In this document: in pieces, positions 5,578 through 39,451 of the stretch
How the letters are laid out: every line of letters starts with the position of its first letter
How positions within the stretch are numbered: the first letter of the stretch is position 1
Sequence record: PP526765
Length of the DNA stretch: 64,000 nucleotides
Direction: 5' to 3' (one strand)
Source: Escherichia phage HK3
Program-made: the position numbers and the translations under genes
The notes under the pieces: model-generated
Seen by the model: the letters and a program-made list of their open reading frames with translations, nothing else
What the model was told of the DNA's origin: nothing
The model's database searches: none

Positions 5578-5918
5578 AAATTATGAAAATCAAAGAAATG
5601 AACATCAATATTGTCTTAGAAGAACGATGGGAGAACATCAAGAAGCCTGAAAATGGTCATAAGTTCCTCAACAAAATCTTAGTAGCAGCTAAAGAAGAAC
5701 TGACTGGCAAGGTTGCAGCAGCAATCACAATAAAGGTCTGTGTAAAAGGTCTTCCAGACAATCACCAATTTGCACTTGACGAGTTTAAAGAAAGCTTCTA
5801 CAATCCAAACAAACAGATGCTTGAAAGTAACTTTGCAGTATCTACAAGCATCGTTCATGACAGAAGCTTTATCCTTTACAAGAATATGAGAGGTGAGTCA
5901 TGCAAGCATATTGGATAG
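5571..5918 (+). CDS. hypothetical protein (115 aa)
   Basis: ORF track; overlaps previous stop (coupled). Confidence 0.5.
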   Translation: MVKIMKIKEMNINIVLEERWENIKKPENGHKFLNKILVAAKEELTGKVAAAITIKVCVKGLPDNHQFALDEFKESFYNPNKQMLESNFAVSTSIVHDRSFILYKNMRGESCKHIG

Positions 5919-27677: not shown

Positions 27678-28268
27678 TTAAGCTTTGGTCTTAAGTAGGT
27701 TCTTAAGTTTTTTAAGATTCATACTCTCATCAAACTTAAAACCAAATCCATTGACATAATCAATGAACTCGGATTTCTTACTGAGTGACAATGCGTAACT
27801 CATATCAAAGTTCTTACTTGTTTCTGCGTCTGGACTAGAGTTCACATCAAATGAAATTTCTGTCGGCTCTTGCTTACTTTTTCTAATATTATCAACCAAC
27901 AAACATGTATAGTTTGCTGGATAGAAATTTACACTACCATCAACGTAGCTGTACTTATTATTATGGATAAGGTTGGAAAAGACCTTAAGGAATGTTTCTG
28001 AGTCGTGGCAAACAAGCTTGAATTGGCTGCTCTCTCCAAGCGCAACTAATGAGTACGGACTTTCACTATCGAAGTCATAGTTTGGATTCGATGTCGTAAC
28101 TGTTACACGCATCAAGTTATTAGCAATAGTCTTCTGTTTAAAAGAATTTGGAACATAGTGAAGACCTCTATCGCACTGATTAACTAATTCTTTCAATAGG
28201 TCATTTGCATATGGTGAATTAATTGATACAGAGCCATCACTATTATAATTAAAACTTACTGTTAACAT
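27678..28268 (-). CDS. hypothetical protein (196 aa)
   Basis: ORF track. Confidence 0.5.
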   Translation of the reverse strand: MLTVSFNYNSDGSVSINSPYANDLLKELVNQCDRGLHYVPNSFKQKTIANNLMRVTVTTSNPNYDFDSESPYSLVALGESSQFKLVCHDSETFLKVFSNLIHNNKYSYVDGSVNFYPANYTCLLVDNIRKSKQEPTEISFDVNSSPDAETSKNFDMSYALSLSKKSEFIDYVNGFGFKFDESMNLKKLKNLLKTKA

Positions 28269-28495
28269 TTTTCAGTTCTCCTGCGATTTATGATTTTGCT
28301 GCAATAGAGAAACGAAGTAAACTCACTGGAAGAAACCATTAAGTGTTGTTCACTAGATTGAGCCATTGCCCTGAAATACATTCCAGTCAAAGCATCGTAG
28401 TGACTATTCTTTCCAATTGAGGTTATATAGCCATGACTCTTTGCAGTTTTATATAAATCTATAATATCTGCGATTTCTAATTGGGAACTACACAT
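28262..28495 (-). CDS. hypothetical protein (77 aa)
   Basis: ORF track. Confidence 0.4.
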   Translation of the reverse strand: MCSSQLEIADIIDLYKTAKSHGYITSIGKNSHYDALTGMYFRAMAQSSEQHLMVSSSEFTSFLYCSKIINRRRTEKC

Positions 28496-28887
28496 AGATA
28501 ATCCTCTTGTCTTCTGTAATTTTGAAAGAACAGGTACAGACCAATTTCAGAGGATGAATAGTAGAGCAACTCTACCCTTTTTGATTCCTTACAGTGATTG
28601 GTATTTTTACCTTTCTTCGGGTTGTTTGATTTTCTCATTAAGTCTCCTTTGTAGAACAAGGCAGACCTACAGCTTTAAGTAAGATGGTACAGTAATCCAT
28701 ACAACAAGTCAAGAACTATTGCAAGTTAAAAAAGTTGTTGACAAAGTACTTGACAAGGTGTAGGCTTATAAATACTTAGAAGATAACTTAAAAGGTTCCT
28801 CTAAAAAGGCTATTTAAACAGATATCTTTCTGGATATCTATCTTTTATCTTAAAAGCCTTTTAAGAGGTCTTATAAGAGGCATACCA

Positions 28888-29259
28888 ATGAAAAACAGAA
28901 CAAACAAAGGCCAGTTTAAAAAAGGCCAGTCTGGAAACCCATCTGGAAGACCAAAAGGCTCTCGTAACAAAAGCTCACTTGTAAAAGCTCAACTGACCAT
29001 TGATAATTCTGCTGAGTTCGCTGCAAAGCTGTTTGAGGCGATTGTTACAAGGGACGCGGCTAAGCTTGCAGAGTTCGGTTTGACGACTGACGATGTAAAC
29101 CTGAAGTCAATGATGGAAGCTGGTAAAACTATCATGACCCACTCAGCAGGTGAGATGAAAGCCATTGCAGCAGACACTAAGAAGACTCCTGATAATGGTG
29201 GTCAACAACAGACAGATAACAAACCAACGTTCTCTGCTGTAGCGACTCTCAAAAAATAA
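28888..29259 (+). CDS. hypothetical protein with N-terminal basic motif KKGQSGNPSGRPKGSRN
   Basis: ORF track; function not assigned. Confidence 0.5.
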   Translation: MKNRTNKGQFKKGQSGNPSGRPKGSRNKSSLVKAQLTIDNSAEFAAKLFEAIVTRDAAKLAEFGLTTDDVNLKSMMEAGKTIMTHSAGEMKAIAADTKKTPDNGGQQQTDNKPTFSAVATLKK

Positions 29260-29272
29260 TTTTAAAAGGTGT

Positions 29273-29302
29273 TGACAGACTCTACAAAGTTGCTCTAAAG
29301 TC
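29273..29302 (+). promoter_or_regulatory. promoter TTGACA-N18-TAAAGT bracketed by inverted repeat GACAGACT / AGTCTGTC (candidate operator)
   Basis: read directly upstream of the vWA-domain gene. Confidence 0.45.
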
Positions 29303-29338
29303 TGTCACATCAAACAAAATGAGAGAAGAGAGTAAAAT

Positions 29339-30754
29339 ATGAGCAAGTTATTTAAACATGCGCACCTTCATGCAGGTCGAACTGAAAATGGTGCTGTAAA
29401 CCATACTTCATCAATGTCTGCTCTGGTAGACTTCTACAAAGCCGCTGGTTCAAGCCGTAGCAATGTAGAAATCTTACCAGACCTGTTCTACAAAGCTTTG
29501 CGTGAGGATGTTGATGTTGCAGTTCGTATTTTACTGCATATGCGAGATGTACGAGAAGGTATGGGCGAGCGTAAAGCTTTCCGAACTGTTTTGCTTCAAG
29601 CGATTGAAGATAAGGTTTTAGAACCTACACAGGTTCTTCGCATTATGGATAAGATTGCAGAACTTGGTCGTTTTGATGACTTCAAAATCTTTGTAGGTAC
29701 TCGTTTTGAGACAGACGCCTTCAAACATTTAGAAGCAGCATTACTAGACCCTGCAACAGCAGGTTTAGCAGCTAAGTGGTTGCCACGAGTAAAACCACGC
29801 CACAAACAGTTTGTAAAACGTTTCTGCAAGTTTGCAAACTTAAGTGAGAAGGAGTATCGCACACTGTTGTCTGCACTATCTGATACGGTTGAGCAAAAAA
29901 TCTCTGCTAATGAGTTTGGTAAGATTGACTACAGCAAGATTCCTTCACTAGCTGCTGCACGTTACCAAAAACTCTTTAACCGTAAAGATGGTGAACGTTA
30001 CAAAGCTTACATCGAGTCGCTCTCAAAGGGTGAGGCTAAGATTAATGCTGGTGCTGTTTACCCATACGATGTGATTAAATCTATTAAGTATGGTAATGCA
30101 GATGTTGCTAATGAGCAGTGGAAAGCACTTCCAAACTGGATGGCAGAAGGTGAAAACATCTTGTGTATGACTGATGTTTCAAGCTCAATGTCTTGGGTGA
30201 ATCTTGGTTCAATCACTGCCCTTGATATTGGTGTATCACTTGCTTTGTATGTAGCAGAACGCAATACTGGTTGCTTTAAAGATGAGTTAATGGTTTACTC
30301 AACAAACCCTCACTTCATTGAACTGAGTGGTGATTTACGAAACCGTCATCGTCAGGTGATGCGTCACGTTGAATATGGCTCAACTAACTTACAAGCAGCT
30401 TTTGACCGTATTCTTGAAATAGGTAAGAGAAACAACTTGACTCAGAAAGATATGCCAAGTAAGCTTATTATCTTCTCTGATATGGAGTTTAATCAGGTTG
30501 ATGGTGCAAATGGTCATACAAACTTTGAAGCAATTCAGAGTAAGTACAAAAAAGCCGGATACGAAATGCCACAACTAGTATTCTGGTACTTAGCAAACCG
30601 TAATGGTACTTGCGAAGTATCTGTTAAGGATAATGGTGTAGCAATGGTATCAGGGTTCTCTCCAGCCACTTTAAAAGCTCTACTTGGTGGTGAGAAGTTT
30701 GACCCAATCAGCGTAATGCTCAAAGCAGTAATGATTGACCGTTATATCTGGTAA
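29339..30754 (+). CDS. vWA-domain protein with MIDAS motif; candidate Ro60/TROVE-like (Rsr-like) RNA-binding protein
   Basis: C-terminal vWA signature ILCMTDVSSSMS (DxSxS); about 470 aa with helical N-terminal region; sits directly upstream of the tRNA/ncRNA cluster; TROVE assignment is inference. Confidence 0.4.
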   Translation: MSKLFKHAHLHAGRTENGAVNHTSSMSALVDFYKAAGSSRSNVEILPDLFYKALREDVDVAVRILLHMRDVREGMGERKAFRTVLLQAIEDKVLEPTQVLRIMDKIAELGRFDDFKIFVGTRFETDAFKHLEAALLDPATAGLAAKWLPRVKPRHKQFVKRFCKFANLSEKEYRTLLSALSDTVEQKISANEFGKIDYSKIPSLAAARYQKLFNRKDGERYKAYIESLSKGEAKINAGAVYPYDVIKSIKYGNADVANEQWKALPNWMAEGENILCMTDVSSSMSWVNLGSITALDIGVSLALYVAERNTGCFKDELMVYSTNPHFIELSGDLRNRHRQVMRHVEYGSTNLQAAFDRILEIGKRNNLTQKDMPSKLIIFSDMEFNQVDGANGHTNFEAIQSKYKKAGYEMPQLVFWYLANRNGTCEVSVKDNGVAMVSGFSPATLKALLGGEKFDPISVMLKAVMIDRYIW

Positions 30755-30772
30755 AAAGTTTTAAAAAGGGTA

Positions 30773-30801
30773 TTGACAATGTGTTTGATACCCTTTAATA
30801 T
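30773..30801 (+). promoter_or_regulatory. promoter TTGACA-N17-TAATAT with flanking inverted repeat GGGTAT / ATACCC
   Basis: read directly. Confidence 0.5.
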
Positions 30802-30863
30802 GTTCTACATAGAAACGAGATGAGAGCTTTTCTAAGATACTGAAAAATATTTTAAAAAAGTTC

Positions 30864-30893
30864 TTGACAACCACTAAAAAATAATGTTAAAGT
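30864..30893 (+). promoter_or_regulatory. promoter TTGACA-N18-TAAAGT for the tRNA cluster
   Basis: about 25 nt upstream of the first tRNA; flanking inverted repeat ACCACT / AGTGGT. Confidence 0.45.
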
Positions 30894-30919
30894 GGTTACA
30901 TAGAGTTTGAAAAGTTTAT

Positions 30920-30996
30920 CTCTGTTTAGCTCAGCTTGGTAGAGCGTTCCGTTTGGGGCGGTAAGGCCGGAGGTTCAAGTCCTCCAACAGAGACCA
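30920..30996 (+). tRNA. tRNA-Pro (anticodon UGG)
   Basis: 7-bp acceptor CTCTGTT/AACAGAG, D-stem GCTC/GAGC, T-arm GGAGG-TTCAAGT-CCTCC, encoded CCA. Confidence 0.6.
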
Positions 30997-31003
30997 AATT
31001 AAT

Positions 31004-31081
31004 GTTCCAGTAGACAAAATGGTATAGTCACCACTCTTTCAAAGTGGATATTTGAGGGTTCAAATCCCTTCTGGAACGCCA
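31004..31081 (+). tRNA. tRNA-Glu (anticodon UUC)
   Basis: perfect acceptor GTTCCAG/CTGGAAC, anticodon stem CCACT/AGTGG, loop CTTTCAA, T-loop TTCAAAT, CCA. Confidence 0.6.
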
Positions 31082-31087
31082 GTTTTG

Positions 31088-31162
31088 ACAGAAGACCAAT
31101 TACAGCAAACTTAATCTTATTCATCTGAAGGTAAATCGGACAAAGAAGAGATTTGGTCTGGT
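31088..31162 (+). ncRNA. structured spacer element a (conserved 5' CAGAAGACCAATTACAGCAA, 3' TTGGTCTGG)
   Basis: 7-bp long-range stem AGACCAA/TTGGTCT; one of four sibling elements. Confidence 0.45.
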
Positions 31163-31172
31163 CATTAAGAAT

Positions 31173-31249
31173 TGCGGGTATAGAGAAAGGGCGTCTCACA
31201 TGTCTCATTAGCATGGTATCGGCAGGTTCGACTCCTGCACCCGCCTCCA
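31173..31249 (+). tRNA. tRNA with CAU anticodon (elongator Met or Ile-lysidine type)
   Basis: loop CTCATTA, D-stem GAGA/TCTC, T-arm GCAGG-TTCGACT-CCTGC, CCA; mismatch at acceptor pair 1:72. Confidence 0.5.
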
Positions 31250-31255
31250 AATTTA

Positions 31256-31320
31256 CAGAAGACCGTTTACAGCAATATTTATTAAATTTTTAGCGGAAAA
31301 ATTGAAAGATACGGTCTGGT
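31256..31320 (+). ncRNA. structured spacer element b (5' CAGAAGACCGTTTACAGCAA, 3' ACGGTCTGG)
   Basis: stem AGACCGT/ACGGTCT; GT/AC replaces the AA/TT of elements a and c. Confidence 0.45.
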
Positions 31321-31333
31321 AATACTAAACATG

Positions 31334-31410
31334 GTTAGGAAGCACATAAGGTATGTGCGGTCGCCTGTTAAGCGAATGGCACAGGGTTCGAATCCCTGAC
31401 TAACCGCCAA
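31334..31410 (+). tRNA. tRNA-Asn (anticodon GUU)
   Basis: D-stem GCAC/GTGC, loop CTGTTAA, T-arm CAGGG-TTCGAAT-CCCTG, CCA. Confidence 0.55.
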
Positions 31411-31481
31411 ATTTAGGAGAGAAGCGATTGCTCACCGATTTGTAAGGTGCAAGTCCTTAGCCTGAATAGAATAATAAAATG

Positions 31482-31569
31482 TGTCGTTATCCCGTAGATG
31501 GTAGCGGTGGGGACTGTAAATCCCTTGTCATTGAGACTCGGTAGGTTCGACTCCTACACGGCACACCAA
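31482..31569 (+). tRNA. tRNA-Tyr (anticodon GUA), long variable arm
   Basis: acceptor GTGTCGT/ACGGCAC, anticodon stem GGGGA/TCCCT, loop CTGTAAA, 88 nt, T-loop TTCGACT, CCA. Confidence 0.6.
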
Positions 31570-31630
31570 TTTTGAGAGGGCTATTTAGCCCCTCCCTTAA
31601 AGAGTTCTTACGAGTACCCTTTAAAGGAGC

Positions 31631-31704
31631 AGAAGACCAAATACAGCAAGTTACTTAAAATTTCAAGCCAATTCAATTTTGAAAAATTTAAAACTTGGTC
31701 TGGC
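31631..31704 (+). ncRNA. structured spacer element c (5' CAGAAGACCAAATACAGCAA, 3' TTGGTCTGG)
   Basis: stem AGACCAA/TTGGTCT. Confidence 0.45.
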
Positions 31705-31717
31705 TCAACAAATTTAC

Positions 31718-31848
31718 AGAAGACCGTTTACAGCAAAACTTAAACAATCTATTTCTCGGTAAAGAAAAGGTGAAGGTTCGATTCCTTCACTCGGCAGATG
31801 TCGAGTTGGTGTAATGGTAGCACTTAAGATGATAAACAACGGTCTGGT
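31718..31848 (+). ncRNA. structured element d with circularly permuted tRNA-like module (candidate YrlA-like Y RNA)
   Basis: order: 5' stem strand AGACCGT (31722) - T-arm GAAGG-TTCGATT-CCTTC (31773-31789) - acceptor-like hairpin ACTCGGC-AGAT-GTCGAGT (31790-31807) - D-arm GTGT-AATGGTA-GCAC (31810-31824) - 3' stem strand ACGGTCT (31840-31846). Confidence 0.5.
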
Positions 31849-31849
31849 A

Positions 31850-31985
31850 ATTATCTTTGCAGTAGCTTATGTGGCTAATTATATCGTCCCATGAGTGCCG
31901 ATGAATTTCCTTAGCATGATTCTAGATTAGCTTAATAGGAAATGACTCTACAGACCCTTTAGCAAGGTCTGCGTAGGTTACTGCA
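31850..31985 (+). ncRNA. element enclosed by a perfect 16-bp inverted repeat (AATTATCTTTGCAGTA ... TACTGCAAAGATAATT) around 104 nt
   Basis: arms at 31850-31865 and 31970-31985; interior has further hairpins (AGACC...GGTCT); no ORF. Confidence 0.5.
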
Positions 31986-31999
31986 AAGATAATTTAATA

Positions 32000-32075
32000 G
32001 AAGTGTAGCAGAATGGTGATGCGGCAGACTTTTAATCTGATAGGTGATGGGTTCGAATCCCTCCACTTCTACCAA
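32000..32075 (+). tRNA. tRNA-Lys (anticodon UUU)
   Basis: perfect acceptor AGAAGTG/CACTTCT, loop CTTTTAA, T-loop TTCGAAT, CCA; T-stem only 3 clean pairs. Confidence 0.5.
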
Positions 32076-32079
32076 TATG

Positions 32080-32156
32080 GTTCAGTCGCAGATAAGGTAA
32101 TGCAGGGGTCTCATAAGCCCTATGAATGTGGGTTCGATTCCCATCTGAGCCTCCAA
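32080..32156 (+). tRNA. initiator-like tRNA-fMet (anticodon CAU)
   Basis: anticodon stem-loop GGGCTCATAACCC with three G:C pairs closing the loop; T-arm GTGGG-TTCGATT-CCCAT; CCA. Confidence 0.55.
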
Positions 32157-32158
32157 TG

Positions 32159-32234
32159 CTGTGAAAGCACATATGGATGTGCATTCGGCTGATAACCGAA
32201 AGGAAGAAGGTTCGAATCCTTCTCACAGTACCAA
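32159..32234 (+). tRNA. tRNA-Ile (anticodon GAU)
   Basis: D-stem GCAC/GTGC, anticodon stem TTCGG/CCGAA, loop CTGATAA, T-arm GAAGG-TTCGAAT-CCTTC, CCA. Confidence 0.65.
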
Positions 32235-32249
32235 TTTCAATAAAGTTGT

Positions 32250-32278
32250 TGACATTGAGATGTGACCACTTTATAGTA
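32250..32278 (+). promoter_or_regulatory. internal promoter TTGACA-N17-TATAGT inside the tRNA cluster
   Basis: read directly. Confidence 0.55.
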
Positions 32279-32481
32279 ACCTTAGTTTTCGTTGCGTAGC
32301 GTCTATTTTGCAAATTTAAAATAAATGCAAACGACAATGTTTTTCTGGCAGTAGCTTGATAGGCTAAACACCAGTGAGGTCTTCCAATCCCTCATCAAAG
32401 AATTTGGCGTACTAGCCCACGGTATGATTAATAAGGTGGGCATCTTTAAGGGTTTTTTAAGAGAGTCTTTAAAGATTAATG

Positions 32482-32558
32482 CACCCTTAGTTCAACTGGA
32501 CAGAACAAATGACTTCTAATCATTAGGTTACAGGTTCGAATCCTGTAGGGTGTGCCAA
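32482..32558 (+). tRNA. tRNA-Arg (anticodon UCU)
   Basis: D-stem GTTC/GAAC, anticodon stem AATGA/TCATT, loop CTTCTAA, T-arm ACAGG-TTCGAAT-CCTGT, CCA. Confidence 0.65.
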
Positions 32559-32700
32559 ATAGTTAGCAGATTGCTTAGACGACCTTATCGGGTCTCCGTG
32601 TAGGGAGGTGGTCTGTATCTCATGTTTTCCAGAACATGTAAATAATCTGAGAAGGGGCTTTACAGTGTTGAGATAATACGGTAAGCTTCGAATTATAGTA

Positions 32701-32783
32701 TGGGACGATGTTAAGACTCTAAGGCATGAGCAACGGCTTCCAACACCGTTTCAAAGGGATTCAACTCCTCCGTCCCATGCCAA
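32701..32783 (+). tRNA. atypical tRNA-like gene (possible anticodon CCA, Trp); irregular D and T arms
   Basis: perfect 7-bp acceptor ATGGGAC/GTCCCAT plus G-CCA, but T-stem has only 3 clean pairs and the D-region is 26 nt. Confidence 0.35.
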
Positions 32784-32796
32784 AGTCTTATTAGGG

Positions 32797-32886
32797 GTAG
32801 GTAGCGGCTAATGGTAGCCAAACTGTCTTGAAAACAGTTGCCACTGTAGAGATACGGTGAGGGTTCGACTCCTTTACTTACCGCCT
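32797..32886 (+). tRNA. tRNA-Ser (anticodon UGA), long variable arm
   Basis: anticodon stem ACTGT/ACAGT, loop CTTGAAA, 20-nt variable arm, T-loop TTCGACT; CCA not fully encoded. Confidence 0.55.
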
Positions 32887-33040
32887 AATAAGATTTAAAG
32901 CCAAGCTTCATTCGGATGTTGCTTTGGTATCCCTCGTGTATTGTCGTACACACTGATAAAGCACCTAGTAGGTGTCACGGAGAAGAGATAATATCAAGCT
33001 CTCCAAAGGTTCTAGTCACCGGATTAAACAAGACTATGCA

Positions 33041-33063
33041 AAGACCTGTTTAGGTCTTTTTAG
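33041..33063 (+). terminator. short hairpin AAGACC-TGTTTA-GGTCTT followed by TTTTT inside the tRNA cluster
   Basis: read directly; may instead be a processing signal. Confidence 0.35.
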
Positions 33064-33141
33064 AGGGCTTCTAAGGTTATTACAGCTTGTTGTGGAACCT
33101 TGTTGCTTAGGTTCTTAGAAGTTCTCTAAAAAGATTTAATG

Positions 33142-33218
33142 CACCTATAGCCCAACTGGTAGAGGCAGCAGACTTAGAATCTGCTCAGTGTGAGTTCGAA
33201 TCTCTCTAGGTGTACCAA
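33142..33218 (+). tRNA. tRNA with anticodon UAG (Leu by anticodon; short variable arm)
   Basis: 6-bp anticodon stem AGCAGA/TCTGCT, loop CTTAGAA, T-loop TTCGAAT, CCA; 77 nt. Confidence 0.45.
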
Positions 33219-33225
33219 ATTAATG

Positions 33226-33301
33226 CAGGTGTAGCAAAATGGTTATGCGGCTGACTCTTAATCAGTAAGACGATGGTTTCAATTCCCTCCACCTGTACCA
33301 G
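33226..33301 (+). tRNA. tRNA-Lys (anticodon CUU)
   Basis: loop CTCTTAA; T-arm paralogous to the Lys-UUU gene; CCA. Confidence 0.45.
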
Positions 33302-33307
33302 ACATTG

Positions 33308-33383
33308 GGGATGTAGTTTACATGGTTAAAACATAAGTTTTGCAAACTTAAGTACAGGGTTCAATTCCCTGCTTCTCCACCAA
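33308..33383 (+). tRNA. tRNA-Ala (anticodon UGC)
   Basis: G3:U70 pair in acceptor stem (Ala identity), D-stem GTTT/AAAC, anticodon stem TAAGT/ACTTA, loop TTTGCAA, CCA. Confidence 0.7.
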
Positions 33384-33389
33384 TTAGTG

Positions 33390-33464
33390 CATCCATAGTT
33401 TAAACGGGAAAATTACAGTCTTCCAAACTGAGGTTGAGGGTTCGATTCCCTCTGGATGCTCCAA
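33390..33464 (+). tRNA. tRNA-Gly (anticodon UCC)
   Basis: perfect acceptor GCATCCA/TGGATGC, loop CTTCCAA, T-arm GAGGG-TTCGATT-CCCTC, CCA. Confidence 0.65.
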
Positions 33465-33470
33465 ATAATG

Positions 33471-33547
33471 CTGCTTTCGTATAATTGGCTATTACACATC
33501 CCTTGTAAGGATGGAAATGCAGGTTCGAGTCCTGTGAGCAGCACCAA
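33471..33547 (+). tRNA. tRNA-Thr (anticodon UGU)
   Basis: anticodon stem CATCC/GGATG, loop CTTGTAA, T-loop TTCGAGT, CCA. Confidence 0.6.
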
Positions 33548-33551
33548 TTCA

Positions 33552-33637
33552 GAGGTCAAGTGAAAGACCGCTGGTGTCAACTGAAGACCGTAACAAATTC
33601 CACGGAGTTGAGTTAGCGGCACAACTTCAGACCTCTT
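33552..33637 (+). ncRNA. structured spacer element closed by AGAGGTC / GACCTCT stem, containing a GAAGACCGT motif
   Basis: 7-bp inverted termini; interior shares GAAGACCGT with elements a-d. Confidence 0.35.
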
Positions 33638-33642
33638 TCATA

Positions 33643-33717
33643 CTCGCTTAGTTTATATGGTAAAACACCACCCTTACAAGATGAAGAAAAAGGTTCAAGT
33701 CCTTTAGTGAGTACCAT
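33643..33717 (+). tRNA. tRNA-Val (anticodon UAC), weak anticodon stem
   Basis: D-stem GTTT/AAAC, loop CTTACAA, perfect T-arm AAAGG-TTCAAGT-CCTTT, CCA. Confidence 0.4.
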
Positions 33718-33718
33718 G

Positions 33719-33796
33719 TTCCAATATCCCAATTGGCAGAGGATGCAAGCTCAAACCTTGTACTAGTGACGGTTCGAATCCGTCTTGGAACACCAA
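33719..33796 (+). tRNA. tRNA with anticodon CAA (Leu by anticodon; short variable arm)
   Basis: perfect acceptor GTTCCAA/TTGGAAC, anticodon stem GCAAG/CTTGT, loop CTCAAAC, T-arm GACGG-TTCGAAT-CCGTC, CCA. Confidence 0.5.
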
Positions 33797-33910
33797 TTTT
33801 GGGAGAGCACTATGAGTGATAAGTCAATAGCAAAAAAGTTTAGAGCGTCATACCTAAACAGACGTAAAAACAAAGATTGTGAAAAACTGTATGGTGTTCT
33901 TGTAGGTAAG

Positions 33911-33986
33911 CAGGATTAGTTCAAATGGATAGAGCAGCAGTCTACGAAGCTGTTAATAGGGGTTCGAATCCCTTATCCTGCGCCAA
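33911..33986 (+). tRNA. tRNA-Arg (anticodon ACG)
   Basis: perfect acceptor GCAGGAT/ATCCTGC, loop CTACGAA, T-loop TTCGAAT, CCA. Confidence 0.65.
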
Positions 33987-34004
33987 TTTTAAGAGGCTAT
34001 TTAG

Positions 34005-34562
34005 ATGAGATATTTGAAGTATGCTTCATGGATTTTCCTAGCTTTGTTAGACCCATTGGCAGCAACCTTAGCAGTTATCTTAGCACCTTTTGTAGTTCCA
34101 TTCTACAGTGAGAAGAAAGGGCACTTACCTTTCGGCTTCAGATGGATGGAGACATATGACAACCCAATTGATGGTGATAAAGGTCATGTTGAACGATGGG
34201 CTAAGATTAGAAAGATTGGTAAGCTTGGTGTCTATATGCAGAGAGTCGGTTGGCTCTGGAGAAACAAAGCTTATAACTTCTCTTACCATGTGTTAGGAAG
34301 AGATGTAAAAGATGTTACTAAGTGGAAAGGTAATATCAACGTAAGCTCTGACCCTGAAGATAATCAGACAGGTTATCTCCTAATGTGGAACAGTAATGCT
34401 TGGGGATTATTCGCTTTTATCCCATCAATTAAAGTCTTTGGTAAACAATTCTACTGGAGAATTTATATTGGGTGGAAACTAAAAAGTGTTGTCCCAGAAG
34501 AAAGAGCATTCTCAAGGGAAAGAGTTATGTTGGCATTCTTTATTCATCCACTGAGAAAGTAA
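34005..34562 (+). CDS. hydrophobic protein encoded inside the tRNA cluster (185 aa)
   Basis: ORF track; AAGAGG Shine-Dalgarno 9 nt upstream; hydrophobic N-terminal helix. Confidence 0.55.
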   Translation: MRYLKYASWIFLALLDPLAATLAVILAPFVVPFYSEKKGHLPFGFRWMETYDNPIDGDKGHVERWAKIRKIGKLGVYMQRVGWLWRNKAYNFSYHVLGRDVKDVTKWKGNINVSSDPEDNQTGYLLMWNSNAWGLFAFIPSIKVFGKQFYWRIYIGWKLKSVVPEERAFSRERVMLAFFIHPLRK

Positions 34563-34570
34563 AGATTTAA

Positions 34571-34646
34571 AGGGGATTAGTTTACAAGGTTAAAACCTCG
34601 GTCTTTGAAATCGAAGAAGTTGGTTCAATTCCAACATCCCCCGCCA
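34571..34646 (+). tRNA. tRNA-Gln (anticodon UUG)
   Basis: D-stem GTTT/AAAC, anticodon stem TCGGT/ATCGA, loop CTTTGAA, perfect T-arm GTTGG-TTCAATT-CCAAC, CCA; A1:C72 mismatch. Confidence 0.6.
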
Positions 34647-34648
34647 AT

Positions 34649-34727
34649 GCTCCATTACTCCAATTGGCAGAGAGGCCAGACTTAAAATCTGTGTTATGTA
34701 TCGGTTCGAATCCGATATGGAGTACCA
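34649..34727 (+). tRNA. tRNA with anticodon UAA (Leu by anticodon; 7-nt variable region)
   Basis: acceptor GCTCCAT/ATGGAGT, loop CTTAAAA, T-arm ATCGG-TTCGAAT-CCGAT, CCA. Confidence 0.45.
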
Positions 34728-34732
34728 AATTT

Positions 34733-34808
34733 AGCGGTATAGCATAACTGGCAATGCAACAGTCTCTGAAGCTGTCTTATTAAGGTTCAAATCCTTATGC
34801 CGCTGCCA
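34733..34808 (+). tRNA. tRNA-Gln (anticodon CUG)
   Basis: D-stem GCAT/ATGC, anticodon stem ACAGT/GCTGT, loop CTCTGAA, T-arm TAAGG-TTCAAAT-CCTTA, CCA. Confidence 0.65.
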
Positions 34809-34839
34809 CTTCTAAGGATTCTTACGAGAGTCCTTAAAT

Positions 34840-34915
34840 GTGGCCTTATCATAAACGGTAATGACCCATGCTGTGAACATGGTCTATACGGGTTCAAATC
34901 CCGTAGGTCACCCCA
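34840..34915 (+). tRNA. tRNA-His (anticodon GUG)
   Basis: D-stem TCAT/ATGA, perfect anticodon stem CCATG/CATGG, loop CTGTGAA, T-arm ACGGG-TTCAAAT-CCCGT, C73, CCA. Confidence 0.65.
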
Positions 34916-34920
34916 ATTTA

Positions 34921-34997
34921 TAGTCCAAGTAGCTTATATGGTTAAAGCGCGTGTCTGAAAAACATGAGAAGAGGGTTCAAATCCCACTGGATTACCA
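34921..34997 (+). tRNA. tRNA-Phe (anticodon GAA)
   Basis: anticodon stem CGTGT/ACATG, loop CTGAAAA, T-loop TTCAAAT; acceptor register uncertain by 1 nt. Confidence 0.5.
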
Positions 34998-35013
34998 ATT
35001 TCAAAGGTGCTTA

Positions 35014-35748
35014 ATGAAAGAGATGACAGAACAAGGTAAGGAGATTTTTAATCTCTTAAAAACTGGTAAAGGGTTTTCTAACCCCCTTATTACTGGTGCA
35101 GCAGTTCTCGGTGGAACCGTAGCTGCCTCTACATCACTTGTAAGCTCTATTAGCTCTGTAACAGACCCTACAATAAAGGATAAACTTATTGCTGCTGGAC
35201 TTACAACAGTTCTGCTTAACAGCTTTACAACGAGTCTGACAAGCACTACAGCAACTACTAAGACCCTAACAGACTATGGTCAAAAATCTATTGATGAGTT
35301 TTCATCACGTATGCAGGTAGCAAAGGGATACTCCAATGTTATGGGTGCAGTAGGAGAACAAGTTGGTTGTACACCATTTAGTGGTATTATGGGTGTTGCT
35401 ACAGAGTATGGTCAAAAAGCTATGGATACAATTAACAGCACACTAGATGGCGTTAATGATGTATTAAGCGACTTACAGGATGCTATTGATAAAGGTCTTA
35501 ATACTATTTCTGATTTAGCTAACCAAGCTGTTAGTAAGATTAATGAAGGTATCTCAAAGATTACAGCTTATGCAGATGAAGTTGTGCAGATGATTGAAGA
35601 AGAAGCTGCCCTTATTGCAGAGTACCTTAAAACGAATATCAATGGGTTCTTAGCAGGTATCTTACCAGACTGGTTTGATGATGCTTGTAAAACTGGTGTG
35701 ATTGACACTATTGCAACACCAGAAATGAAGAACGCATTACAGAAATAA
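35014..35748 (+). CDS. Ser/Thr-rich hypothetical protein (about 244 aa)
   Basis: ATG at 35014 after AAAGGTG; track ORF 34951..35748 would overlap the tRNA-Phe gene. Confidence 0.5.
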   Translation: MKEMTEQGKEIFNLLKTGKGFSNPLITGAAVLGGTVAASTSLVSSISSVTDPTIKDKLIAAGLTTVLLNSFTTSLTSTTATTKTLTDYGQKSIDEFSSRMQVAKGYSNVMGAVGEQVGCTPFSGIMGVATEYGQKAMDTINSTLDGVNDVLSDLQDAIDKGLNTISDLANQAVSKINEGISKITAYADEVVQMIEEEAALIAEYLKTNINGFLAGILPDWFDDACKTGVIDTIATPEMKNALQK

Positions 35749-35749
35749 C

Positions 35750-35842
35750 GGAAGATTAACCCTAAAAGGTAAGGGAGCAGTTTGCTAAACTGCCAGTAGC
35801 TGAGAAATCGGTGTACCAGTTCAAGTCTGGTATCTTCCTCCA
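35750..35842 (+). tRNA. tRNA-Ser (anticodon GCU), long variable arm
   Basis: acceptor GGAAGAT/ATCTTCC, perfect anticodon stem GCAGT/ACTGC, loop TTGCTAA, 21-nt variable arm, T-arm ACCAG-TTCAAGT-CTGGT, CCA. Confidence 0.65.
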
Positions 35843-35846
35843 ATTT

Positions 35847-35922
35847 GAATCCGTGACAGAAATGGCTATGTACCTGTCTGCAAAACAGGTTTATAAGGGT
35901 TCGAGTCCCTTCGGATTCTCCA
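35847..35922 (+). tRNA. tRNA-Cys (anticodon GCA)
   Basis: perfect acceptor GAATCCG/CGGATTC, anticodon stem CCTGT/ACAGG, loop CTGCAAA, T-arm AAGGG-TTCGAGT-CCCTT, CCA. Confidence 0.7.
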
Positions 35923-35959
35923 AGTTATTTTACTCTCTCTCAATTAAAATAATAATAAT

Positions 35960-36019
35960 GCCCTGCTATAAGTATTCTTCCTTTCGCTACCGAAGAGTAT
36001 TTTTAGACAGGGCTTTTTT
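35960..36019 (+). terminator. long hairpin terminator after the tRNA cluster
   Basis: GCCCTG...CAGGGC stem with nested TATTCTTC/GAAGAGTA pairing, then TTTTTT. Confidence 0.6.
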
Positions 36020-36084
36020 ACAGAGTTATACTTTATAAGAAGACTTATACAGTATGTCTCTGACGTACATTGTGGTTTCTCCTT

Positions 36085-36109
36085 GACGGTCTCTGTACCG
36101 TCTTTTTTA
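36085..36109 (+). terminator. rho-independent terminator
   Basis: GACGGT-CTCTGT-ACCGTC hairpin plus TTTTTT. Confidence 0.6.
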
Positions 36110-36144
36110 AGGAGAAACATGGTTAATTATTTGGAGAAAACATA

Positions 36145-36345
36145 ATGAGCGAGACCGTTTATAAAGAACTTTATGAAGCCAATAAAAAGCTGGAATTTAT
36201 GCAGACTACTATTATGGCAATTGCAGACAGATTGTCTGTAGCAACAGGTATTGATATCAAAGAAGCCTCTATGGATGCACTTCTTGATGCTGTTGATGCA
36301 AAGTTCGAAGTTAAGAAAGAAGAGACTGCTACAGACTCTGAATAA
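36145..36345 (+). CDS. small acidic protein (66 aa)
   Basis: ORF track; immediately upstream of the large terminase. Confidence 0.45.
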   Translation: MSETVYKELYEANKKLEFMQTTIMAIADRLSVATGIDIKEASMDALLDAVDAKFEVKKEETATDSE

Positions 36346-36366
36346 TTCTATTTGCGGAGGTGCTTA

Positions 36367-37968
36367 ATGGACTTAAATGCTGTTAAGCAGAAGCGAGTGG
36401 AAGATGTTAGGAAAGTCCTAGCTGGAGAGTTGGGGCTTTCTGATGAAGTAAAAGAAATTATCAAATCATTCGGTAAAGACCCCTCTAAATTCCTTCCAAC
36501 TCAAATTCTGACTTTATTAAGATACACACCAGACCAAGTTAGACTTATCTTCAAATTGATGACTGATAAGAACTATGTAGCCCCTCAGCCGGGTTCTCAA
36601 GAGGTGTTTTTAAATACTAATGCTGACTTGGTTTTATATGGTGGTGCTGCTGGTGCTGGTAAAACTGCTGCATTGTTAATGGACTCTTTAAGGTTTATTG
36701 AAGACCCTAACTATAATGCTGTATATTTCCGTCGAAATACAACACAGTTACAAGGTGGTTTATGGCCTGCTGCAAAGAAACTATTTGGTAAGTTTGGTGG
36801 GGTTCCTCACGAGCAGAAGATGACTATCACATTCCCTTCTGGGGCAACTATCAAGTTCACCTACCTAGAACTTGAAAAGCACGCTGAAGGTCATCAGGGT
36901 ATTGAATACTCAGCTATTTACTTTGACGAAGGTACACACTTCTCTGCTTCACAGATTTCATACCTACAGACTCGTCTGCGTTCTGGTGCTGAAGGTGACT
37001 CATACATGAAGATTTCCATGAACCCAGATAGAGACCACTTCATTTATGATTGGGTAGAACCCTTCTTAGATGAAGAAGGTTACCCAGACCCTGAGAAGTG
37101 CGGTCGTATTCGTTGGTATGTTATGAATGATGGTGTGATGGTTTCTGATTGGGAAAGAGACAAGATTCTTGAAATGTTCCCTCTTGAGATTCCTCAGACA
37201 TACACCTTCATCTCTGGTACGATTGATGATAACCCAATTCTTGACTTCTTAGAACCTAAATATCGTGGTAAGTTGGAAAACAACACACCTGTAAACGTTG
37301 CAAGACTTCGTTTCGGTAACTGGAAGGCTCGTGCAGAAGGTTCAAACTATTGGCAAAGACAATGGTGTGAGATTGTTGATTCACTCCCAGAAGATGTGTT
37401 TGATGTCAGAGCATGGGACTTAGCAGCGACTTTACCATCTGAAATTAACCCTAACCCAGACTGGACAGCGGGTGTTAAGATGGGTAAATCTAAAAAAGAC
37501 GGTTGCTATTATATCATTGATGTAGTAAGATTTAGAGATAGACCCTCTGGAGTCGAAACACAAATTAATTTGACTGCTGAAAGTGACGGTAAGCGAACTG
37601 GTATTTTTATCCCTCAAGACCCAGGCGCTGCTGGTAAATCCTATGCAACATCCCTCATCAGGAAACTTGCCGAGAAAGGTTATCGCGCAAGAGCTAAACC
37701 AACAAATAAAGATAAAGTTACCCGCTTTGCGGGATTTTCTGCTGCTTCGGAAGCTGGACTTGTAAAAGTCTTGAGAGGCAGTTGGAACGAAGCTTACTTT
37801 CAAGAACTTGAAGGCTTTTGTGGTGATGGTAAAACGAAAGATGACCAAGTGGATGCTACCAGTGATGCTTTCAACAGTCTTAACGAAGTTAAATTATTCA
37901 AGCCACCATCAATGGGTGCTCACACAGATTTAGTGAGAGGAAACCCATATGAGGGGCTTAGACGTTGA
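36367..37968 (+). CDS. terL: terminase large subunit
   Basis: Walker A LYGGAAGAGKT; size about 530 aa; GCGGAGGTG Shine-Dalgarno before ATG 36367 (track ORF starts at TTG 36352). Confidence 0.8.
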   Translation: MDLNAVKQKRVEDVRKVLAGELGLSDEVKEIIKSFGKDPSKFLPTQILTLLRYTPDQVRLIFKLMTDKNYVAPQPGSQEVFLNTNADLVLYGGAAGAGKTAALLMDSLRFIEDPNYNAVYFRRNTTQLQGGLWPAAKKLFGKFGGVPHEQKMTITFPSGATIKFTYLELEKHAEGHQGIEYSAIYFDEGTHFSASQISYLQTRLRSGAEGDSYMKISMNPDRDHFIYDWVEPFLDEEGYPDPEKCGRIRWYVMNDGVMVSDWERDKILEMFPLEIPQTYTFISGTIDDNPILDFLEPKYRGKLENNTPVNVARLRFGNWKARAEGSNYWQRQWCEIVDSLPEDVFDVRAWDLAATLPSEINPNPDWTAGVKMGKSKKDGCYYIIDVVRFRDRPSGVETQINLTAESDGKRTGIFIPQDPGAAGKSYATSLIRKLAEKGYRARAKPTNKDKVTRFAGFSAASEAGLVKVLRGSWNEAYFQELEGFCGDGKTKDDQVDATSDAFNSLNEVKLFKPPSMGAHTDLVRGNPYEGLRR

Positions 37969-37984
37969 TAGCTAGGTGAGAAGA

Positions 37985-39451
37985 ATGGCAGATATTACAG
38001 AAACACAAGAAAGCTTACCACCATTTAGAATGGGTGAAGTAGGTTCTTTGGGTCTGAAGGTTAAGAATGGAAGAATCTATGAAGAACCTCGTCAGGCACT
38101 AAGGTTCCCCGAAAGTATTAAAACTTTCCAATTAATGATGCGTGACCCTGCTGTAGCAGCATCTGTAAATATTATTAAGATGTTTGTCAGAAAAGTCAAC
38201 TGGAGATTCGTACCTCCAAAGGGAAAAGAGCAAGACCCTAAAATGCTTGAAAGAGCAGACTTCTTTAATTCTTTAATGGATGACATGGAGCATGATTGGG
38301 CAGATTTTATTAACTCTGTAATGTCATTCTGCACTTATGGGTTCTGTGTTAATGAGAAGGTTTATAAGAAACGTCAGGGTAAGAAAGGAAAGTACCAGTC
38401 TAAGTTTGATGATGGTCTAATTGGATGGGCTAAGTTACCAATCAGAAACCAATCAACGCTTGATAAGTGGTACTTTGACGAAGACTTTAGAAAAGTTACT
38501 GGTGTTAGACAGAATCTGAGAAATGTTTCACATATTGCTGGAGCAATTAATCTTGGAGAAAGACCACTAACAAGAAAACTCCCACGAGCTAAATTCATGC
38601 TGTTTAAGTATGATGATGAGTATGGTAACCCAGAAGGTCGTTCACCATTACTTAACGCTTATGTACCGTGGAAGTATAAAGTACAGATTGAAGAGTATGA
38701 AGCTGTTGGTGTTTCAAGAGACTTAGTAGGTATGCCAAAGATTGGTTTACCACCAGATTATCTGGATGAAAATGCAGAACCTGAAAAGAAAGCTTTCGTA
38801 CAATACTGCAAAACTGTTGTTAATGATATGATTGCTAATGACAGAGCAGGTTTAATCTGGCCTAGATATATCGACCCAGATACTAAAGAGGATATCTTTG
38901 AGTTCTCATTAGTTTCTAGACAGGGTGCTAAAGCATATGACACAGGCTCTATTATTGACAGATATTCCAAGCAAATTATGATGGCATTTATGTCAGATGT
39001 TCTTGCTATGGGTCAGTCAAAATACGGTTCATTCTCTCTTGCAGATTCTAAGACAAGCTTATTAGCAATGTCAGTAGATATTCTGCTGAAGCAAATTAAG
39101 AACGTAATTAACCGTGATTTAGTTGCACAGACTTATGCTCTTAATATGTGGGACGATGAAGAACATGTACAAATCACATATGATGATATCGAAACTCCAG
39201 ACCTTGAAGTAATTGGTTCTTACATTCAGAAGACTGTTGCAGTAGGTGCTTTGGAAGTTGACAAAGAGCTATCTAATAAACTTAGAGAGCATATTGGTCT
39301 TCCTCCTGCTGATGAGTCTCAGCCAGTATCTGAAAAGCTTTCTCCAAATACCCAAAGCCGTTCAGGAGATGGCTATAAGACCGCTGGAGAAGGTACTGCA
39401 AAGACACCTTCAGCGAAAGACCCAAGCACAGCAAATAAGGCAAATAAATAA
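37985..39451 (+). CDS. portal protein (putative)
   Basis: about 490-aa ORF directly after terL; ATG 37985 with AGGTGAG upstream. Confidence 0.6.
   Translation: MADITETQESLPPFRMGEVGSLGLKVKNGRIYEEPRQALRFPESIKTFQLMMRDPAVAASVNIIKMFVRKVNWRFVPPKGKEQDPKMLERADFFNSLMDDMEHDWADFINSVMSFCTYGFCVNEKVYKKRQGKKGKYQSKFDDGLIGWAKLPIRNQSTLDKWYFDEDFRKVTGVRQNLRNVSHIAGAINLGERPLTRKLPRAKFMLFKYDDEYGNPEGRSPLLNAYVPWKYKVQIEEYEAVGVSRDLVGMPKIGLPPDYLDENAEPEKKAFVQYCKTVVNDMIANDRAGLIWPRYIDPDTKEDIFEFSLVSRQGAKAYDTGSIIDRYSKQIMMAFMSDVLAMGQSKYGSFSLADSKTSLLAMSVDILLKQIKNVINRDLVAQTYALNMWDDEEHVQITYDDIETPDLEVIGSYIQKTVAVGALEVDKELSNKLREHIGLPPADESQPVSEKLSPNTQSRSGDGYKTAGEGTAKTPSAKDPSTANKANK

Follow-up and report, generated by a model that had tools for sequence, protein, structure and literature searches.

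The tRNA array of Escherichia phage HK3 raises the question of what occupies the spacers between its genes. In the 64,000-nucleotide (nt) stretch of this genome analysed here (sequence record PP526765; hereafter the window), which comes from a Felix O1-like phage of the genus Felixounavirus, 25 tRNA genes are located on the + strand between 30920 and 35922 (ARAGORN). An earlier note, made from the sequence alone, had described three sibling spacer elements (a, b, and c) at 31088-31704, sharing their terminal blocks with a fourth one (d, 31714-31850) that falls outside this range. The four elements form a covarying, strand-specific RNA structure that is linked to a protein family with the fold of Ro60 across distant lineages, and d contains a tRNA mimic. 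Judging from the sequence, a–d are probably small non-coding RNAs of the Y-RNA type and partners of the Ro60-like protein encoded at 29339-30754, which lies 330-960 nt upstream of them on the same strand. An E-value scan of 29000-37000 with Rfam 15 gave nothing on a–d, and a scan of 11 loci at the Rfam gathering threshold gave tRNA only.

Elements a–d share the consensus CAGAAGACC-NN-(T/A)WACAGCAA ... NN-GGTCTGG, closed by a 7-base-pair (bp) stem. The 5' block CAGAAGACCNNNWACAGCAA has exactly four copies in the window, all on the + strand and with 0 mismatches (31089, 31256, 31630, and 31717), compared with a chance expectation of 0.02 matches, and the stem AGACCNN/NNGGTCT is contained in the minimum-energy fold of each element. 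The covariation of the NN pairs pointed out previously (AA with TT in a and c, GT with AC in b and d) is readily read from the sequence, and the 7-bp stem is kept in all four elements, as confirmed by both sequence and folds. Regarding the blocks said to be shared, CAGAAGACCNNNWACAGCAA and NN-GGTCTGG are indeed present in all four elements, but c reads AA-ATACAGCAA instead of TWACAGCAA; the interiors, given as 45-55 nt, measure 44 (a), 35 (b), and 45 (c) nt between the blocks; and the placement between two tRNA genes holds directly for a and b, but not for c, which has hairpins before it and d after it.

Every element has an additional 4-bp outer helix (TGAC/GTCA in a, TTAC/GTAA in b and d, and GAGC/GCTC in c), which an AGA/G internal loop sets apart from the 7-bp stem and which varies compensatorily between the copies. 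The module is laid out as a purine-A, a 7-bp helix starting with A-U and G-C, then 3 nt and a single-stranded CAGCAA, with an unpaired G on the 3' side. The enclosed interior (hereafter the cargo) is a short AU-rich hairpin in a–c. Two other readings of the flanks were rejected. A kink-turn at the AGA/G loop would need G-A pairs, which are impossible because the 3' strand GGTCTGG has no A. A promoter in the 5' flank, where TTGACA/TTTACA overlaps the outer helix, gives one weak 9/12 match only (31252-31279), the -35 box is missing from c, and what is conserved does not look like a promoter in the various lineages.

Two dinucleotide states in one genome are thin evidence alone; it is the relatives that supply the decisive support. 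The surrounding 1.4 kb matches 264 phage records, mostly at 90-98% identity, and nine Felixounavirus genomes carry the four elements at orthologous positions. Among these nine genomes, the variable columns of the module and of the interior number 2/37 and 27/44 for a, 6/37 and 19/37 for b, 3/37 and 12/48 for c, and 0/37 and 5/103 for d, respectively; two of the six module changes in b constitute a compensatory switch of the outer helix (TTAC/GTAA to TTGC/GCAA). The few variable columns there indicate purifying selection on the module in a–d, and also on the tRNA-like cargo of d.

To cover more distant relatives, two sets of loci were used, namely a viral set of 80 loci encoding homologues of the Ro60-like protein at 39-99% identity and an independent set of 80 loci from bacterial and archaeal assemblies at 33-43% protein identity. 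The same design is found in a viral locus at 48% identity with 22 tRNAs downstream (L009), in which the stems AGAGCAC/GTGCTCT, AGAGCAGT/ACTGCTCT, and AGGACAC/GTGTCCT are each followed by TTTCAGCAA or ATTCAGCAA. In a scan of the 80 viral loci, the pattern AG-N8-CAGCAA occurred 105 times on the gene strand, 78 of these having a perfect 7-bp complement plus G within 215 nt, and 13 times on the other strand with 0 complements, while the pattern joined to random downstream DNA as a control gave 133 complements in 2100 trials (6.3%). A first covariance model, built from 24 short forms, matched a at an E-value of 5.8e-10, also found b and c, and added elements missed by the motif scan, with one group having the first pair flipped from A-U to U-A. 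A second-round model (R2) was run on 76 viral and 80 assembly loci. With filters off, the models pick out a, b, c, and d in 28000-38000 and no other site there; d, which is outside the training set, is found by both (E-values, 6.6e-4 and 9.4e-5).

The stems of these matches are paired nearly throughout. In the viral matches not used in training, 98.2% of stem cells are paired and the covariation is 0.726, as against 0.171 ± 0.034 in shuffled alignments, and the pairing drops to 23-55% when the 3' partner is slid. The assembly set gave 36 matches with 99.2% paired cells, double compensatory changes at 7/7 pairs, and covariation of 0.888 (0.224 when shuffled). Double compensatory changes occur at 5-7 of the 7 stem positions across distant phages and assemblies, and G-U pairs are tolerated. 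Across both sets of loci, the module starts with the 5' strand of a 7-bp stem (usually AG.../...CU), continues with 3 nt, CAGCAA, and a variable interior, and ends with the complementary strand and G. The alignment with covariation in relatives that the earlier note had proposed as a test has thus turned up both conservation and compensatory changes, and its argument for selection on a paired structure is borne out by a module that is near-invariant within the genus while the interiors of a–c drift, and by a stem that is 98-99% paired across lineages.

R2 gave 82 matches in 60/76 viral loci and 52 matches in 36/80 assembly loci, the latter all within about 1.3 kb of the gene. All 134/134 matches are on the strand of the protein gene, located beside it or in spacers of tRNA arrays. 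This strandedness, together with the tolerated G-U pairs and the tRNA-like folding of the long interiors, favours RNA over DNA as the acting molecule. As a negative control, the 5' pattern alone had 120 matches in all viral contigs, with a complement in 8/120 (6.7%, the chance rate) and the gene in 0. In the reverse direction, all viral contigs were scanned for complete elements of one stem type (AGGTTCC...CAGCAA...GGAACCTG), and 32 elements were found in 31 contigs. Seventeen contigs have the gene in the fetched stretch, with 18/18 elements on the gene strand and usually 23-820 nt away; those of the other 14 all belong to tRNA arrays and have the orientation of the tRNAs, mostly in a spacer between two tRNA genes and no more than tens of nt from one of them. 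From this outcome the element appears to recur in two settings, next to the Ro60-like gene and in the spacers of tRNA arrays, and the window combines both. Complete elements within tRNA arrays were also seen on GVMAG-named contigs (L290, L297, L316, and L319), which are labelled as giant-virus metagenome bins and are possibly misbinned phage contigs.

Many genomes carry 2-4 copies, typically short forms (50-70 nt between the stem ends) plus at least one long form. In the cluster-L mycobacteriophage Rumpelstiltskin, a short, a long, and a short element followed by a terminator are located directly after a gene annotated as 'Ro-like RNA binding protein'. Listeria P100-like phages have two short elements and a long one just upstream of the gene, with a tRNA array upstream and an RtcB-type ligase downstream. 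In Listeria phage LMSP-25 (L168; 1960-3030 and 6808-8019), two promoter-driven regions without convincing open reading frames lie upstream of the gene and the three elements, and probably correspond to transcripts of phage CKA15 that are reported to be extremely abundant; downstream of the gene are a phosphohydrolase and an RtcB 'tRNA splicing ligase', recalling the Salmonella rsr-yrlBA-rtcBA operon.

The product of the Ro60-like gene contains Pfam DUF2828 and DUF7788 and a weak VWA_2 match, without Pfam TROVE. An AlphaFold2 model was built on 32 homologues (predicted local distance difference test, 85.5; predicted template-modelling score, 0.86) and compared with the PDB by Foldseek. The top 10 matches are all Ro60/TROVE proteins aligned over the full length (508-562 aligned columns; E-value, about 1e-7; probability, 1.00; template-modelling score, 0.52-0.65), namely Xenopus Ro60, human Ro60, and Thermus phage phiLo Ro60, and isolated vWA domains rank next. 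The protein is therefore predicted to have a full-length Ro60 fold composed of a TROVE HEAT-repeat ring and a vWA domain. The residues of the metal ion-dependent adhesion site (DxSxS; D279, S281, and S283) are invariant in the 32 homologues. Relatives of the gene are annotated as 'RNA-binding protein' or 'vWFA protein', and the family was located by tblastn in at least 709 phage records, with hosts including Escherichia, Salmonella, Vibrio, Listeria, Staphylococcus, Campylobacter, Enterococcus, Bacillus, and Mycobacterium; it is also present in assemblies binned to many bacterial phyla. A functional paper on DUF2828 was not found in the literature. A preprint on the Felixounavirus Bas63 reports that gp130 resembles Ro60 in structure and acts against the Ppl defence system; gp130 is encoded directly upstream of tRNA genes, and its authors guess that some annotated tRNAs are Y RNAs. 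From the genus membership and the gene position, we infer that Bas63 gp130 corresponds to the Ro60-like gene of the window.

Element d folds with z = -2.56 and has four hairpins inside the closing stem, which resemble the variable arm (V), the T arm, an acceptor stem (AS) capped by a loop, and the D arm of a tRNA. They are arranged in the order V, T, AS, and D, with the closing stem taking the place of the anticodon arm. Neither ARAGORN nor the Rfam tRNA model calls a tRNA on d, and for artificial un-permuted constructs of d, ARAGORN called one of three inserted loops. A tRNA gene, permuted or otherwise, was rejected as a reading of d, which has no anticodon loop, an acceptor capped by AGAT, and an anticodon position that opens into the closing module. 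The layout of T arm, capped acceptor hairpin, and D arm recurs in long forms from unrelated loci, with GTAA as a frequent loop of the acceptor hairpin and TAGCTCAGTTGGTAGAGCA as a frequent D arm. For 15 long forms, an unfitted MAFFT/RNAalifold alignment predicts the stems of T, AS, and D, with compensatory double changes in 14/16 pairs.

Other cargoes were observed as well. In L064 (5734-5833), the module AGGTTAG...CAGCAA...CTAACCTG surrounds what scores in Rfam as a tRNA of standard order (52.9 bits; 5753-5824) and not a permuted mimic with a cap, indicating that a whole tRNA-like unit, anticodon arm included, can serve as cargo. The long forms of L010, L011, L015, L025, and L038, which are large Vibrio-type phage contigs, have a common cargo, GAACCTTTCTGGAGGGGAAAGCAAAAACTCGCCAAAA, that is not a tRNA mimic and points to at least one further cargo class.

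As for the biogenesis, a–d would be transcribed within a polycistronic tRNA precursor from the promoters at 30773 and 30864, as suggested by the layout, in which the next + strand promoter is at 32249 and no + strand terminator-like site was found between 30900 and 32249. Because 3-4 nt separate a and b from the tRNA that precedes them and 8-10 nt from the one that follows, they could be released by 3'-end processing of the preceding tRNA and by RNase P cleavage at the 5' end of the following one, yielding RNAs of ~80-95 nt (a, b, and c) and, for d, ~140 nt that would need no dedicated promoters or terminators. Maturation by tRNA-processing enzymes is also implied by the repeated location of such RNAs in tRNA-array spacers. 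The closing module may be the docking site of the Ro60-like ring, given the co-occurrence of the two and the analogy to a terminal stem with a CGAA loop, and the cargo may set the action of the ribonucleoprotein (RNP). It is possible that the cargo tethers or gates a host nuclease such as PNPase, for which RYPER complexes and phiLo are precedents, or serves as a tRNA-shaped decoy; a further candidate function is the anti-Ppl activity reported for Bas63 gp130.

We infer the binding, accumulation, and function of a–d, and several points weigh against a partnership with the Ro60-like protein. Reports on expression, end mapping, or binding of such RNAs in any phage were not found in the literature, and the short forms might work solely as parts of the precursor without ever accumulating. 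The canonical Ro-binding motif GNCGAAN0-1G, with its CGAA, is absent from the conserved 5' region of a–d, which has CAGCAA instead. At the sequence level, the protein matches no PDB chain, Ro60 included, either by phmmer or with the 32-sequence profile. R2 has no match in 16/76 viral and 44/80 assembly loci, which may reflect divergence, truncated contigs, or true absence, and 14 elements of the reverse scan are without the partner gene in the fetched stretch, the gene being known elsewhere for one of them (L294 and L071). The outer helix is a trait of the genus plus some other lineages and not of the whole family; at least six contiguous outer pairs are present in 15% of 86 elements versus 6% in shuffles. 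The highly abundant RNAs of Listeria phage CKA15 (PMC12282133) could not be matched to the elements; they seem to be other, larger promoter-driven regions 1-2 kb upstream.

The main alternative to free Y-RNA-type molecules is that a–d act in cis, as docking or processing sites of the polycistronic pre-tRNA that are later destroyed, with or without the Ro60-like protein. Such sites would organise cleavage, protect the precursor, or mark the spacers for degradation. This role, which we regard as unlikely though deserving serious attention, fits with the near-complete occupation of their spacers by a and b (3-4 nt from the upstream CCA end, 8-10 nt from the tRNA that follows), with the lack of a dedicated promoter or terminator alongside a–d, and with 14/31 pattern-found elements elsewhere that are snug between tRNA genes on the tRNA strand. 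It does not account for most of the loci, where the elements flank the gene with no tRNA near (L012, L014, L017, and L024 have 0 tRNAs in 13 kb and strong matches), or for the three elements of Rumpelstiltskin, which end in a terminator of their own; moreover, the elaborate covarying tRNA mimic of the long forms would be needless in a disposable spacer, and canonical Y RNAs, too, are stable partners. A second cis role, as autoregulatory protein-binding sites in the 5' or 3' untranslated region of the mRNA for the Ro60-like protein that control its translation or stability, is suggested by the many loci with elements within about 30-800 nt of the gene, on either side and on the same strand. We consider it improbable, as two promoters and two tRNA genes intervene here before the first element, other elements are kilobases away inside tRNA arrays, and the 2-4 copies per genome carry different cargos, tRNA mimics included.

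The elements might instead be decayed or duplicated spacers or tRNA remnants, with a–c as eroded copies of d and their ends alike by recent descent. Duplication does enlarge phage tRNA arrays, the flanks of b and d are alike (34 nt at 94% identity; family D13), and d contains tRNA-derived arms. Nevertheless, the same module is formed by unrelated stems from Mycobacterium to Listeria to cyanobacteria hosts, with compensation at up to 7/7 positions, and within the genus the interiors drift while the module stays fixed, which makes common decay highly improbable. That the elements act as DNA, whether as the inverted repeats of a miniature mobile element, as a site where tRNA cassettes recombine, or as the target of a homing endonuclease, is to our mind scarcely credible. 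Terminal inverted repeats surrounding a variable interior, HNH endonuclease genes inserted in the tRNA region of relatives, and the precise absence of a tRNA-Asp gene from the window would agree with it, but all 134/134 matches keep to the gene strand and 14/14 array-embedded elements to the tRNA strand, G-T pairs in the stem would give A-C mismatches on the opposite strand, the conserved CAGCAA lacks symmetry, target-site duplications were not observed, and the positions are orthologous and stable across the genus.

A Y-RNA-type partnership of a–d with the Ro60-like protein leads to a broader proposal, which may be true but which we would not yet favour. The elements could represent an unnamed, widespread class of Y-like RNAs (AG-stem / CAGCAA / CU-G) that is the obligatory RNA subunit of DUF2828-type Ro60-like proteins, is matured from phage tRNA arrays by host tRNA-processing enzymes, and provides cargo-programmable scaffolds; in Felixounavirus, the RNP and not the protein alone would neutralise Ppl.

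Table 1. Positions of the elements, their parts, and adjoining features in the window
Feature	Position	Strand	Description
Ro60-like protein gene	29339-30754	+	471 amino acids; immediately upstream of the tRNA array; proposed partner of the elements
Sigma-70-like promoter 1	30773-30801	+	TTGACA-17-TAATAT
Sigma-70-like promoter 2	30864-30893	+	TTGACA-18-TAAAGT
tRNA-Glu	31004-31081	+	ARAGORN and Rfam; 3' end 4 nt ahead of element a
Element a, short form	31086-31164	+	Between tRNA-Glu and tRNA-Met
Parts of a		+	Outer helix 31086-31089/31161-31164; inner stem 31093-31099/31153-31159; CAGCAA 31103-31108; unpaired G 31160
3' block of a	31153-31161	+	TTGGTCTGG
tRNA-Met	31173-31249	+	ARAGORN; 8 nt past element a, 3 nt ahead of element b
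Element b, short form	31253-31322	+	Between tRNA-Met and tRNA-Asn
Parts of b		+	Outer helix 31253-31256/31319-31322; inner stem 31260-31266/31311-31317; CAGCAA 31270-31275; unpaired G 31318
3' block of b	31311-31319	+	ACGGTCTGG
tRNA-Asn	31333-31409	+	ARAGORN; 10 nt past element b
Element c, short form	31627-31706	+	Separated from tRNA-Tyr by 58 nt of other hairpins; d is next
Parts of c		+	Outer helix 31627-31630/31703-31706; inner stem 31634-31640/31695-31701; CAGCAA 31644-31649; unpaired G 31702
3' block of c	31695-31703	+	TTGGTCTGG
Element d, long form	31714-31850	+	137 nt; follows c
Parts of d		+	Outer helix 31714-31717/31847-31850; inner stem 31721-31727/31839-31845; CAGCAA 31731-31736
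V hairpin of d	31747-31771	+	Variable-arm-like; RNA fold
T arm of d	31772-31788	+	GAAGG-TTCGATT-CCTTC
Capped acceptor-like hairpin of d	31789-31806	+	7-bp stem, 4-nt loop: ACTCGGC-AGAT-GTCGAGT
D arm of d	31809-31823	+	GTGT-AATGGTA-GCAC; has GG
3' block of d	31839-31847	+	ACGGTCTGG

Directly 3' of d, a fifth structured RNA was noticed at 31849-31996 (+ strand; z = -5.9), in which a ~23-bp closing stem, AATTATCTTTGCAGTAGCTTA.../...TAGGTTACTGCAAAGATAATT, surrounds three hairpins. One hairpin, CAGACC-CTTTAGCAA-GGTCTG, resembles a miniature of the module of a–d (AGACC stem, NNN-AGCAA, and GGTCT-G). The Felix O1 allele is strongly diverged and has the same fold (z = -5.7), with compensatory changes in the long stem; neither Rfam nor the covariance models matched this RNA. 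At 32348, GCAGTAGCTTGATAGGCTAA shows 80% identity to the beginning of the 31849-31996 RNA (family D16) and to the 5' portion of tRNA-Phe. It belongs to an unannotated 240-nt stretch between the 32249 promoter and tRNA-Arg (region 32340-32480, + strand), which may be another tRNA-derived non-coding RNA.

Several further features of the array were recorded. The tRNA-Asn/tRNA-Tyr spacer (31410-31480, + strand) contains a T-arm-like hairpin, AAGG-TGCAAGT-CCTT, within a modest fold (z = -2.5); the hairpin is kept in Felix O1 and adrianh, and the spacer may be a decayed tRNA or another small RNA. The motif family TTTTGAGAGGGC / TTTTAAGAGAGTC / TCTTACGAGAGTC (repeat families D2 and D18) is found at 31569-31629 and near 32455, 33795, 33987, and 34820, recurring just after or before several tRNA genes, frequently as small hairpins, and perhaps represents processing or termination signals. 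A tRNA-Asp that follows tRNA-Tyr in Felix O1 and most relatives (L001, 974-1050; L003, 973-1049) is precisely missing at 31568/31569 of the window and likewise from phage OPT-SAL01; the junction falls within CCAAT, the 3' terminus common to the two tRNAs, suggesting that tRNA 3' ends recombined and the gene was lost. Where the window has its second tRNA-Met, Felix O1 carries a gene for an HNH endonuclease (L003, 1652-2137), and OPT-SAL01 has ~500 extra bases from tRNA-Met to tRNA-Ile (L002, 1557-2051).

Ro60-Y RNA particles are a classic yet functionally murky system of RNA surveillance. The Ro60 resemblance of the protein family is already in the literature, and the Bas63 and Listeria phage papers also speculate on partner Y RNAs; in an incomplete literature search, no paper identifying such RNAs for the DUF2828-type family or for Felixounavirus was found. 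Here, concrete coordinates and a candidate binding module are given for the RNA partners of this larger, divergent DUF2828-listed family, and the published guess that annotated tRNAs of Bas63 are Y RNAs is replaced by four specific spacer RNAs, through which a mechanism for countering the Ppl defence becomes directly testable. With the covariance model, annotators could also name many 'spacers' of phage tRNA clusters that are at present unexplained.

The closest bacterial counterparts are YrlA and YrlB, the Y RNAs of Salmonella Typhimurium and relatives (Chen et al. 2013, 2014; PMC4201824). Like them, the elements adjoin a Ro60-type gene on its strand and have a closing stem followed by a single-stranded motif on the 5' side; in both, a tRNA-like domain is found in one paralogue per genome, d and the other long forms sharing with YrlA the order V, T, capped acceptor stem, and D, a–c are short and without a tRNA-like domain as is YrlB, and the RtcB ligase near some loci (Listeria phage) has its equivalent in the Salmonella operon. 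Unlike YrlA and YrlB, they have CAGCAA with an AG-starting stem and a 3' CU-G in place of GNCGAAN0-1G, their putative partner belongs to Pfam DUF2828/DUF7788 and not to TROVE, being kin to Ro60 at the level of the fold only, and a–d are embedded in a tRNA operon. The 2014 survey of bacterial Y RNAs covered only TROVE-annotated genomes (254 bacteria and 22 phages). The pair of Thermus phage phiLo, in which Yrl1 and Yrl2 accompany phiRo60, is the sole phage Ro60-Y RNA system with biochemistry that was found in the literature, its binding, PNPase recruitment, and structure being experimental (PMC12135203; PDB 9KOP and 9L5Y). Both phages combine a Ro60-fold protein with two or more adjacent small RNAs, whose 5'-3' stem flanks a large loop holding a short conserved motif, and phiRo60 is among the top structural matches of the window protein. 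In contrast to a–d, phiLo has CGAA, a recognisable Ro60 homologue, and RNAs located upstream of the gene and outside a tRNA array. Metazoan Y RNAs (Xenopus Y3; PDB 1YVP) likewise present paired termini with a conserved irregular helix to the Ro60 ring and a variable loop for recruiting. They differ in the helix, GGUCCGA with a bulged C, in transcription by polymerase III, and in having no tRNA-like domain.

With respect to biogenesis, the parallels are 'species 1 and 2' of phage T4, which are stable small RNAs co-transcribed with phage tRNAs, and, more broadly, non-coding RNAs whose maturation is punctuated by tRNAs. Similar to these species, a–d are non-tRNA RNAs amid tRNA genes that would be freed by RNase P and 3'-end processing; we know of no Ro60-like partner or CAGCAA module for species 1 and 2, and the likeness is one of biogenesis only. 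Altogether, the elements are most likely Y-RNA-like molecules with a different recognition module, a divergent protein clade as partner, and a biogenesis from the tRNA operon.

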